Notes under the pieces: generated by a model
What the model saw: the letters and a program-made list of their open reading frames with translations, nothing else
Told to the model about the DNA's origin: nothing
Databases searched by the model: none
From: a virus
Taxonomy: Duplodnaviria; Heunggongvirae; Uroviricota; Caudoviricetes
Reading direction: 5' to 3' (one strand)
Length of the DNA stretch: 4,244 bases
IMG/VR virus record: IMGVR_UViG_648276659_000008
Position numbers and translations under genes: made by a program
Part shown: positions 2,026 to 4,244 of the stretch, one piece after another
Numbering within the stretch: position 1 is the stretch's first letter
Layout: each line of letters starts with the position of its first letter

Positions 2026-2210
2026 TGTGCACATCCTTTTTGTATCGGACGTAAACGGGCCAGCATTGAAAGAATGCATATTTTATTTAATAACTCCCGT
2101 TCGTGTTTTCTCTTGTTAATGGCATCTTCAGTAAATACAGGGTTACTGATAGTGACACCAATTTCAAAACAACCTTCAGACGTATTAACGTTTGGTAATA
2201 ACGTTTCCAT
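2022..2210 (-). CDS. dicB: DicB cell-division inhibitor (62 aa)
   Basis: METLLPNVNTSEGCFEIGVTISNPVFTEDAINKRKHERELLNKICILSMLARLRPIQKGCAQ. Near-identical to my recollection of K-12 DicB over most of its length. GAGGA SD 7 nt upstream of ATG at 2210. Position (~180 nt downstream of dicF, immediately upstream of ydfD) matches the Qin dicB operon. Confidence 0.93.
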   Translation of the reverse strand: METLLPNVNTSEGCFEIGVTISNPVFTEDAINKRKHERELLNKICILSMLARLRPIQKGCAQ

Positions 2211-2227
2211 TATCGCGTCCTCAACAA

Positions 2228-2384
2228 TGAATTTTGTGATGCAGTGCCTGGTGCCTCCAGGTGACGTTAACCAGTTAACAATTAACGCCGGGTTAGTTGA
2301 TGCTCGTTACGCCCGTAAAATACCGCCTTACTGCTTTAACTGTTCCGCGTGCGCATAGCCGCATTCACCGCATCACAAAATTCA
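2228..2384 (-). repeat. 15-bp perfect inverted repeat pair bracketing the dicF-dicB spacer (arms 2228-2242 and 2370-2384)
   Basis: Plus strand 2228-2242 tgaattttgtgatgc is the exact reverse complement of 2370-2384 gcatcacaaaattca. In the minus-strand transcript one arm sits just 3' of the DicF terminator and the other 5 nt upstream of the dicB SD. Confidence 0.7.
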
Positions 2385-2388
2385 CTTT

Positions 2389-2446
2389 AAAAAGGGCGGC
2401 AGAGCAGTCACGGAGTAAAACTGATACCGCCAAATGTCACCAGAAA
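2389..2446 (-). ncRNA. dicF: DicF small regulatory RNA (53-nt body 2394-2446 plus U-tract to 2389)
   Basis: Minus-strand sequence UUUCUGGUGACAUUUGGCGGUAUCAGUUUUACUCCGUGACUGCUCUGCCGCCC followed by UUUUU matches the DicF sRNA as I recall it, with GGCGG...GCCGCC terminator-like pairing. Sits between ydfC-like and dicB as in Qin. Confidence 0.9.
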
Positions 2447-2781
2447 ATTGATAACAGAGGGCGTTGTAGCGGGGTTGTCACTTAAGCGTATGGTCAACCT
2501 GACAACCCGGTGCATTTTCTGGAGCAATGGAGGAAACCCCAGCCATACTTACCGCCGCGCCATTTCGCGGAGTGCCACAACCGGAAGCGCACGGTCGAAC
2601 TAAATTTAACGACACCGTACAGAGAGACCAATTTCGCCGTGCGCTTTCGCGTTATGCCCTGACTTTTCAGGGACATATCCTTTCAGTAAACTGTCAGTGC
2701 CGGATGCTCACCCGTGTCCGGCGCACGCACTCCACCTGACCAGTGGAGAACTCCTTAATTACCAACCCTCAGGAGGGTGAA

Positions 2782-3060
2782 ATGGATAAAAAGCAAATTG
2801 AGGCCCTGCAATCTATTATTGAAGAACAAGATGAAGCTATCAGGATTCTTTCATATCGCACTGATATGATACTAAATATGCTTTCTGCATTAACGGCTGC
2901 GCTTGGTGGTACAAAAACAAACGTATACCGCGAAGTTGTTATTCAACAGATAGATAAATTTGAAAAAACCATACCAGGTATTAATGCTCATCTTGCAGAA
3001 CAAGAGAAAGACCATGCTCTTATGGCAATTTCTTCAGTAGCTCTCCCGAAAGTTGAGTAG
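2782..3060 (+). CDS. Hypothetical acidic 92-aa protein, antisense to the operon; AT-rich moron-like gene
   Basis: ATG at 2782 preceded by perfect AGGAGG SD (2771-2776, 5-nt spacer). Open frame of 92 codons in AT-rich DNA (about 37% GC by manual count, against roughly 43-55% in sampled flanking segments). MDKKQIEALQSIIEEQDEAIRILSYRTDMILNMLSALTAALGG... is predicted helical with one short hydrophobic stretch. I recognise no family. Confidence 0.6.
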   Translation: MDKKQIEALQSIIEEQDEAIRILSYRTDMILNMLSALTAALGGTKTNVYREVVIQQIDKFEKTIPGINAHLAEQEKDHALMAISSVALPKVE

Positions 3061-3421
3061 TTTTAATTGTTGTTTTGAAATAATCACTGCTTTCACATTT
3101 GAGTGATTTCATGGCAATCCAAATGCGGGCCTCTGTGCCTGCATTTGGTTCCAGTTGCTGTAGACGTTTTGCGTCTTCCAAAAGTAAGGCGATAATGTGT
3201 TTCAGCTTCTCATCATTTGCTTGATTCTTGTTTTCAGGCGAATTCTGTCCGCCGAATAGGCGCTTCTCTTCATACAGACCTATAAAGGCACGACGCACGT
3301 TACCGGATATAGTATCGATGGTTTCCTTTTCTACAGTACTCAGGTCAAGAGTCGCCAGTTGAGAGCGAACCACATTCGCTGCCATTTCCTGGAATGGCAT
3401 TGGTAAATCTTTAAATTCCAT
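3020..3421 (-). CDS. Hypothetical 133-aa protein in operon orientation; its 3' end overlaps the convergent plus-strand gene by 41 bp
   Basis: ATG at 3421 with GAGG SD 7 nt upstream; 22 nt downstream of the ydfC-like stop. MEFKDLPMPFQEMAANVVRSQLATLDLSTVEKETIDTISGNVRRAF..., soluble and helical-looking, no family recognised. The last ~100 nt (3020-3120) are much more AT-rich than the rest of the gene. Confidence 0.7.
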   Translation of the reverse strand: MEFKDLPMPFQEMAANVVRSQLATLDLSTVEKETIDTISGNVRRAFIGLYEEKRLFGGQNSPENKNQANDEKLKHIIALLLEDAKRLQQLEPNAGTEARIWIAMKSLKCESSDYFKTTIKTTQLSGELLKKLP

Positions 3422-3443
3422 TATTAGCCTCGTTGGTTAGCTA

Positions 3444-3662
3444 TTAACGTGGGTATGTAACCATTCTGGCAATGCTTAATGCCGCTGCTTTTTCCAGCCT
3501 GGTGATATCCTGCTCCAGAGCGGACAGATTTTCAGCCTGCTTAGTCCTGGCTTCATTGGCCCATTTCAGATCCTGCACTGCATTAATTTTCTGGCGCATC
3601 CACTCATAAAGTTCATCATCGGTATAGTCTGGCGCGATGATGACGGGTTCTCGTTTCTGCAT
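3444..3662 (-). CDS. ydfC: YdfC-like prophage protein (72 aa)
   Basis: MQKREPVIIAPDYTDDELYEWMRQKINAVQDLKWANEARTKQAENLSALEQDITRLEKAAALSIARMVTYPR. GAGGA SD 8 nt upstream of ATG at 3662. Size and position (third gene of operon) match Qin ydfC; sequence identity is a vague recollection only. Confidence 0.8.
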   Translation of the reverse strand: MQKREPVIIAPDYTDDELYEWMRQKINAVQDLKWANEARTKQAENLSALEQDITRLEKAAALSIARMVTYPR

Positions 3663-3691
3663 ACTGATTCCTCGCGGTGCTGTTTCGCTTA

Positions 3692-3820
3692 TCAGCCGTT
3701 AGATTTTCCCGAACTGGAAAGCGCCTGTTTAAATTCACTGAAGCTGAGAGCTTCTTCGCCTTCGGCAAGACCATCGAAGTATTCTTCGTAAGCCTTTTCC
3801 ATGATTGTGTCGAAATCCAT
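3692..3820 (-). CDS. ydfB: YdfB-like small acidic prophage protein (42 aa)
   Basis: MDFDTIMEKAYEEYFDGLAEGEEALSFSEFKQALSSSGKSNG. ATG at 3820 lies 1 nt after the ydfA-like stop (TGAtATG), with GGTGAG SD inside the upstream gene. 42 aa as K-12 YdfB. Not in the ORF track (below its size cut-off). Confidence 0.75.
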   Translation of the reverse strand: MDFDTIMEKAYEEYFDGLAEGEEALSFSEFKQALSSSGKSNG

Positions 3821-3821
3821 A

Positions 3822-3977
3822 TCACTCACCTGAGTTTCTTTCCAGCCAGCGACGGGCACCATTTTCGGTTTTAAACGTTTTGCTTTTGGTATACGTCATC
3901 GCGGTGAATGTGCCGTCCTGGTTGGGAAACACGCCGTACACCAGAGATTCGTTGTTGCCAAGCTCGATAGTATCCAT
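3822..3977 (-). CDS. ydfA: YdfA-like small prophage protein (51 aa), first gene of the operon
   Basis: MDTIELGNNESLVYGVFPNQDGTFTAMTYTKSKTFKTENGARRWLERNSGE. GAGG SD ~8 nt upstream of ATG at 3977. 51 aa and first after the promoter, as Qin ydfA (Rac ydaF is a paralogue). Not in the ORF track (below its size cut-off). Confidence 0.8.
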   Translation of the reverse strand: MDTIELGNNESLVYGVFPNQDGTFTAMTYTKSKTFKTENGARRWLERNSGE

Positions 3978-4048
3978 GCTGACCTCATTTCCCCTTAACG
4001 CCGGGTGGCGGAACTAAAACCTACAGCGCCGTGCTGTTCTTGATAGAA

Positions 4049-4077
4049 ATATTAGTAACGCGGATATTTTAAGTCAA
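4049..4077 (-). promoter_or_regulatory. Sigma70 promoter of the dicB-type operon: -35 TTGACT (4077..4072), 17-bp spacer, -10 TAATAT (4054..4049)
   Basis: Minus-strand read cTGTTGACTtaaaatatccgcgttacTAATATttc; both hexamers 5/6 to consensus with optimal 17-bp spacing, ~70 nt upstream of the ydfA-like start. Inverted AAATAT/ATATTT arms (4047-4052, 4064-4069) overlap the -10 and spacer and could be an operator. Confidence 0.55.
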
Positions 4078-4174
4078 CAGTATGGCGTATGATATTTTTG
4101 ATTTGGTAACTATGTAAATGTTTTTTCAAGGGAAAAATATTAGTTATACAGCTGATTTGCAGAAGTTATGGCAC

Positions 4175-4210
4175 AAAAAAACCCGCCAAAAAGGCGGGTT
4201 TTTTTTTTTT
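4175..4210. terminator. Bidirectional rho-independent terminator (A7 - CCCGCC aaaaa GGCGGG - T12)
   Basis: Perfect 6-bp GC stem with 5-nt loop, flanked by an A-run on one side and a T-run on the other, so it works as an intrinsic terminator on either strand. On the minus strand it would end transcription coming from a gene beyond the window end (expected immunity repressor, dicA-like). Confidence 0.8.
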
Positions 4211-4244
4211 GGGTGGGGGGGGGGGGGGGGGGGGGGGGGGGGGG
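4211..4244. other. Terminal poly-G homopolymer (gggt then G30); probable sequencing or assembly artefact at a contig end
   Basis: Uninterrupted G run at the extreme 3' end of the window directly after a T12 homopolymer, typical of two-colour chemistry poly-G read tails or a homopolymer-induced contig break. Confidence 0.6.

Follow-up and report, generated by a model that had tools for sequence, protein, structure and literature searches.

A DicF small RNA and its K-12-like leader in a probable lambdoid prophage operon that carries an additional two-gene cassette

The 4,244-nt stretch of DNA analysed here (the window; IMG/VR virus record IMGVR_UViG_648276659_000008) encodes on its minus strand a DicF small RNA. 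As judged from sequence comparison, it is very probably an ordinary member of its family, preceded by its native leader and located in a known type of operon. Upstream of DicF the sole structural difference from Escherichia coli K-12 is, in all likelihood, a 656-bp cassette of two genes lying outside the known precursor. The outcome corrects the original prediction in that the DicF leader, over at least 220 nt, is a constant module which travels with DicF across prophages, while strain differences sit further upstream, in the two-gene cassette and in the immunity region.

The sRNA had been placed at positions 2389–2446, which proved exact. The Rfam family RF00039 (DicF) matches the minus strand at 2394–2445 with 77 bits (gathering score 48; E 1.9e-16; model positions 1–52 of 52), and DicF is the only above-threshold Rfam match in the window. 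Taking the length of 53 nt from the K-12 annotation, the equivalent in the window is 2394–2446. It is followed by the U-tail of the intrinsic terminator (UUUUU, 2389–2393), which was read off the sequence and is the same in all aligned loci. The terminator hairpin (about 2395–2431) and the U-tail are identical to those of K-12. In the alignment with K-12 dicF, 52 of 53 bases are equal and the sole change is G12A, so that the close match to the known sRNA expected for the DicF body is borne out.

We are confident that the window represents the early-left, dicBF-type operon of a lambdoid prophage, read from the minus strand. The order of elements is promoter, ydfA, ydfB, ydfC, a 133-aa gene, a convergent 92-aa gene, a leader of 321 nt, DicF, dicB, a ydfD-like gene and the gene for exonuclease VIII. 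Positions 2150–3700 have an identical copy in E. coli strain 118UI, within an apparently complete prophage next to ompW that contains genes for integrase, excisionase and replication. The first gene of the operon, ydfA (DUF1391; 3822–3977, minus strand), was assigned as an ORF from K-12 homology and the 118UI annotation; ydfB (3692–3820, minus) from the RefSeq annotation of the identical copy and K-12 homology; and ydfC (3444–3662, minus), annotated as such in the identical 118UI copy, is 96% identical to its K-12 counterpart. These three genes lie upstream of DicF. On the same strand, 183 nt downstream of DicF, is dicB (2022–2210, minus; Pfam DicB, E 4e-38), followed by the ydfD-like gene (DUF1482; 1834–2025, minus; ORF and 118UI annotation) and by the N-terminal 580 codons of a RecE-like exodeoxyribonuclease VIII (1–1741, minus; NCBIfam NF007259, E 5e-65). 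This last gene runs off the window and its counterpart in strain 118UI is annotated as exonuclease.

Two sigma-70-like matches found by a consensus scan (4089–4118 and 4049–4077, minus strand) are candidates for the operon promoter. Homology to the K-12 Qin prophage begins only at 4015, 38 nt upstream of ydfA. The promoter region shows no homology to K-12 dicBp, the adjacent repressor in strain 118UI is not DicA, and the immunity type is unlike dicA/dicC. Because promoter and immunity region differ from K-12, the regulation established in studies on DicA is not transferable to the operon of the window.

Some further features of the window were seen at its upstream end and in the dicF–dicB spacer. 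A bidirectional terminator-like hairpin (CCCGCC...GGCGGG) with flanking A and T runs lies at 4175–4205, downstream of the neighbouring repressor gene, and accounts for weak Rfam matches to STnc370 and leader families at this place; the 118UI prophage has a different stem here (CCGAC...GTCGG), i.e. a compensatory replacement. A run of about 30 G at the very end (4215–4244) is missing from the otherwise 96% identical 118UI region and is most likely a sequencing or assembly artefact at the contig end (poly-G, two-colour chemistry). The dicF–dicB spacer (2178–2396, minus strand) gave a sub-threshold match to the Rfam family STnc100 (31 bits, gathering score 47; E 4e-4) that takes in a conserved hairpin, CACCUGGAGGCACCAGGCAC, immediately ahead of dicB; in Salmonella, STnc100 may represent the corresponding spacer of a prophage.

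The extra DNA upstream of DicF was delimited by BLAST against K-12 Qin (L001), which returned two blocks: window 4015–3424 corresponds to L001 1970–2562 with 96% identity, and window 2767–975 to L001 2563–4345 with 89% identity. As the two blocks abut between the adjacent K-12 bases 2562 and 2563, the extra DNA is window 2768–3423. Extra DNA carrying a 92-aa ORF on the plus strand (2782–3060) had thus been recognised correctly, and it amounts to 656 bp. The cassette starts 20 nt after the ydfC stop codon and 321 nt upstream of the DicF 5′ end.

What had been concluded from this insertion, namely that it replaced the leader of the DicF precursor, is wrong. The ydfC–dicF spacer of K-12, which had been taken to be short, measures 340 nt, and 320 of these are kept directly 5′ of DicF (window 2447–2767). 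Identity to K-12 is 49/50 over the nearest 50 nt and 65/66 over the nearest 66 nt, with the single mismatch at 2467, and amounts to 84% over the nearest 137 nt and 85% over 321 nt. A 5′ flank that follows K-12 over more than 50 nt to this degree counts against a replaced leader. The structured region that had been regarded as new sequence is this same native leader. The inserted DNA, starting 321 nt upstream, is outside the leader of about 137 nt that belongs to the known precursor.

Differences from K-12 within the leader concentrate in two replaced patches, 2513–2542 and about 2598–2632. The proximal leader (2447–2512, minus strand), comprising the AU-rich RNase E junction (AUCAA/UUUCUGG) and a conserved 9-bp hairpin (2472–2508) that is present in both single-sequence and consensus folds, is almost invariant across 77 distinct leaders. 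It is followed in the upstream direction by the first of these patches (termed variable patch 2; 2513–2542, minus), where a small hairpin CUGGGG...CUCCAG stands in place of GGGG...CCCC in K-12. Further upstream are a long hairpin that is a probable RNase III substrate (2581–2651, minus; 5′ arm 2633–2651, 3′ arm 2581–2599, apical loop about 2600–2632) and the distal leader (2652–2767, minus), which according to BLAST is common to K-12 and which is also the upstream region of the 92-aa gene on the opposite strand. No further Rfam families were detected in the leader at E values up to 1.

A set of 124 DicF loci was gathered from viral contigs and reference genomes. In 124 of 124 loci the homology to the leader of the window covers no less than about 220 nt 5′ of DicF, up to window 2667, and beyond this it breaks recurrently at 2667, 2727, 2745, 2767 and 2781–2785. 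Since this stretch is kept in every locus, the leader is a constant companion of DicF and not a strain-specific feature.

In K-12, DicF has no internal promoter; a polycistronic RNA starting upstream of ydfA is cut by RNase III to a 190-nt and by RNase E to the 53-nt species, and the precursor needs only about 137 nt of leader (PMC10448788). Counting 190 nt back from the 3′ end of K-12 DicF leads to the step from ...CGACCGUGCG to CUUCCGG, a position in the 3′ arm of the long hairpin whose 5′ arm is CGCGAAAGCGCACGGCGA. Folding of the window, of K-12 and of the 77 distinct leaders as a consensus (RNAalifold) predicts this stem each time, and the window has kept both of its arms intact (2633–2651 and 2581–2599). 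Likewise retained as in K-12 are the junction for RNase E and the hairpin immediately upstream. The K-12 pathway is expected to apply by analogy, since all elements known to be needed for processing lie in the retained leader. By this homology, DicF would be excised from the polycistronic transcript of the operon, with RNase III cleaving in the long hairpin at 2581–2651 and leaving a precursor of about 190 nt, and with RNase E acting on the AU-rich junction at 2446/2447 and releasing the 53-nt, Hfq-dependent sRNA. The 3′ end would be formed by the intrinsic terminator of DicF itself. Processing, expression and target regulation are in this sense inferred from K-12; sequence identity, architecture, distribution and the coding status of the two cassette genes are shown by the analysis. 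The site of RNase III action is probably within the long hairpin, an assignment that derives from the length of the precursor rather than from primary gel data. Quantitatively, processing could differ, as the patches at 2513–2542 and about 2598–2632, inside or next to the 190-nt precursor, are not those of K-12.

The leader structure is one of conservation and energy models. Among the 77 distinct leaders 98.9% of cells were paired, which is no better than in shuffled controls, and just two double changes occurred; covariation support is absent because the leader sequences are too similar. A compensatory extension of the stem into the apical part of the RNase III hairpin was considered and rejected, given that 23 apical alleles did not stand out from apical-shuffle controls (z about −0.9 to +1.4). 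In these models the apical part has the character of a variable loop.

With regard to targets, the published DicF–ftsZ pairing involves the 3′ region of DicF and the ribosome-binding site of ftsZ. Nucleotides 13–53 of DicF, including the ftsZ-pairing part, are identical to K-12, and the predicted duplex with the translation-initiation region of K-12 ftsZ has −36.6 kcal/mol, as compared with −38.5 kcal/mol for the K-12 allele. The unchanged 3′ half would accordingly pair with the ftsZ ribosome-binding site, and retention of ftsZ regulation, as originally proposed, is plausible from the sequence. The proposal had extended to other targets. Here it is uncertain for xylR, G12A being in the middle of the 5′ seed.

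We consider it possible, in a tentative way, that this DicF copy is a functional variant, in which G12A weakens the interaction with xylR, and slightly that with pykA, while keeping ftsZ, so that the target set would be narrowed or shifted. The validated xylR site falls in the first 10 codons and engages the 5′ end of DicF. Nucleotides 5–17 of K-12 DicF form 13 contiguous pairs with xylR +8 to +20, and G12 is opposite the central C. With A12 a central C·A mismatch arises and the best predicted xylR duplex reaches −15.0 kcal/mol instead of −20.4 kcal/mol; with pykA, a terminal pair is predicted to be lost as well. The xylR mismatch would hold in practically any host, given an identity of at least 99% for the xylR region in 5394 of 5408 E. 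coli genomes. Moreover, position 12 (window 2435) is the only polymorphic base in the 5′ seed of DicF and can be G, A or T, with A found in 11 of the 124 sampled loci. Against a change in function, the argument is one of energy predictions, single central mismatches are sometimes tolerated with Hfq, and the Rfam consensus of DicF itself has A at position 12, so that the A allele is a common one and may be equivalent in function.

A12 usually occurs together with the patch-2 allele of the leader. Conversely, the allele at 2513–2542 was always seen together with A12 and with the change from U·G to U-A at 2467, a position in a predicted leader stem. As a separate observation, DicF position 12 pairs in the consensus fold with a U upstream of the RNase E junction.

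The cassette (2768–3423) consists of the 133-aa gene on the operon strand (3020–3421, minus; phrog_1363, E 3e-45) and the 92-aa gene antisense to the operon (2782–3060, plus; phrog_18692, E 8e-63), the latter with the ribosome-binding site AGGAGGG at 2770–2776. The two genes are convergent and their 3′ ends overlap by 41 nt. Judged from conservation, both ORFs are real genes, since Salmonella has the same convergent pair with the same overlap of 41 nt and since dN/dS (0.25 for the 92-aa and 0.20 for the 133-aa gene) indicates purifying selection. Orthologues of the 92-aa protein in Salmonella are 71–81% identical. In the 133-aa protein, the N-terminal segment of about 55 aa is common to the cassette alleles, and the C-terminal domain (aa 69–133), 60% identical to a free-standing 71-aa protein of Salmonella, is specific to the allele of the window.

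Variation in the dicBF neighbourhood among prophages has been noted before (PMC5069750). Of 5426 complete E. coli genomes, 124 contain the exact cassette and 896 the first 162 nt of it, which encode the shared N-terminal domain. Among deposited phages in the phage database none had the exact cassette allele at a coverage of 80% or more. By sequence comparison the cassette is one allele of a polymorphic module that many E. coli and Salmonella prophages have at this site, with K-12 Qin as a cassette-less form. In one locus (E. coli 23CRST038) an IS3-family insertion truncates the cassette after 448 nt, with loss of the 92-aa gene and separation of ydfC and DicF.

The alleles further indicate, again from sequence, that C-terminal domain and antisense gene are swapped jointly at a recombination hotspot, which suggests that the two products work together. 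An autonomous two-protein module (toxin-antitoxin-like, superinfection-exclusion or anti-defence) that sits in a recombination hotspot and is unrelated to DicF biogenesis would explain this joint swapping, in which the O157 versions of the exchanged parts are unrelated and the N-terminal 50 aa are 78% identical. The occurrence of the C-terminal domain in Salmonella as a free-standing 71-aa protein paired with a 93-aa orthologue, as well as the purifying selection on both genes, point in the same direction. We nevertheless rate this explanation as rather unlikely. Profile searches with Pfam and NCBIfam yielded no match for either protein, PADLOC gave E 0.025 or worse for the 133-aa protein and no match for the 92-aa protein, and neither was found by these three resources to belong to a known defence or toxin-antitoxin family. 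PHROGs returned the families 1363 and 18692 alone, both of them without assigned function. The AlphaFold2 models are all-helical bundles of low confidence (pLDDT 59 for the 133-aa and 69.5 for the other protein), and a Foldseek search of the PDB with the 92-aa model gave no fold match (best E 0.44).

Whether the cassette might bear on DicF and DicB at a distance was also considered. An operon transcript started upstream of ydfA would include the 92-aa gene in antisense, as had been proposed; no terminator-like site was found on the operon strand scanned between ydfC and DicF. The cassette could then change DicF and DicB output indirectly, through interference by convergent transcription, RNase III cleavage of sense-antisense RNA or Rho-dependent polarity, which we regard as improbable. 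The convergent layout with its 41-nt overlap is conserved from E. coli to Salmonella, and the RNAs would share at least 41 nt, or more should the plus-strand transcript continue; the sole terminator-like site downstream of the 92-aa gene on its own strand is weak and lies within ydfC, at a distance of about 400 nt. Ahead of DicF the untranslated stretch measures 573 nt instead of the 340 nt of K-12, which could favour Rho-dependent polarity. On the other hand, the consensus scan of the plus strand upstream of 2782 found no promoter at threshold for the 92-aa gene, the best candidate picked by eye being TTTTCA-17-TAAACT at about 2664–2692. Nor was a Rho-loading signal detected in the inserted untranslated stretch, where the ratio of C to G is about 1 and the C-over-G bias typical of such sites is lacking. 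In sum, DicF dosage could change via the leader patches, via the longer untranslated stretch together with possible convergent transcription, or via the different immunity and promoter region.

Still more doubtful is the idea that the C-terminal domain of the 133-aa protein and the antisense-encoded protein form a co-evolving module and that antisense transcription gates read-through into DicF and dicB. If true, the cassette would act on the expression of the prophage cell-division inhibitors, as a switch not yet described or as a toxin-antitoxin-like or exclusion module. Finally, that the insertion replaced a short spacer and supplied a foreign leader (the 92-aa gene in antisense together with a new structured region) which alters DicF processing and dosage is hardly credible: an insertion relative to K-12 with a plus-strand 92-aa gene does exist, but 320 of the 340 nt of the K-12 spacer are kept, the structured region is the native leader, the known precursor needs about 137 nt of it, and all 124 loci keep at least 220 nt.

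The preferred reading thus remains that of an ordinary DicF with its native leader. The discovery value of the region is small; an identical copy is already in RefSeq, and DicF, its processing from the dicBF operon and its varied prophage contexts have all been published. Two leads for specialists emerge, the natural variation among G, A and T at DicF position 12, where the xylR-pairing seed has its centre, and the convergent gene pair, which is exchanged as a unit and conserved in Salmonella.

Compared with K-12 Qin, the window is alike in 52 of 53 DicF bases, in the position of DicF between ydfC and dicB, in the terminator, the RNase E junction and the long hairpin at the end of the 190-nt species, in 320 nt of leader at 85% identity, and in the neighbours ydfA, ydfB, ydfC, dicB and ydfD. 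It differs by G12A, by the leader patches at 2513–2542 and about 2598–2632 and by the 656-bp cassette after ydfC. The promoter and immunity region is unrelated to dicA/dicC, and the prophage of the closest genome looks complete and adjoins ompW.

The dicF prophages of O157:H7 (CP-933/Sp type, PMC5069750; PPompW phages) have the same architecture, with a convergent two-gene cassette at the same site. The O157 allelic cassette has the same borders as that of the window, on the left the start of the MEFKDLP gene and on the right the ribosome-binding site of the antisense gene. In its operon-strand protein the N-terminal 50 aa are 78% identical, whereas the C-terminal half, like the entire antisense protein, bears no relation to the version in the window. 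The DicF copy of this prophage differs from that of the window in the sequence of the stem-loop. Counterparts of the cassette at window 2768–3423 are positions 1742–2360 in locus L003 and 3001–3457 in locus L130.

The latter is a Salmonella enterica prophage with the same convergent pair, also overlapping by 41 nt, in which the orthologue of the 92-aa protein has 93 aa and is 72% identical. The partner is a 71-aa protein that corresponds to residues 69–133 of the 133-aa protein; the N-terminal domain is absent. The leader from cassette to sRNA is much shorter than in the window. Downstream of the gene pair, at the same relative position in the early-left operon, lies an RNA (2734–2782, minus strand) that has the DicF terminator hairpin but a different 5′ seed and scores 36 bits, below the gathering score of 48, and is hence DicF-like.
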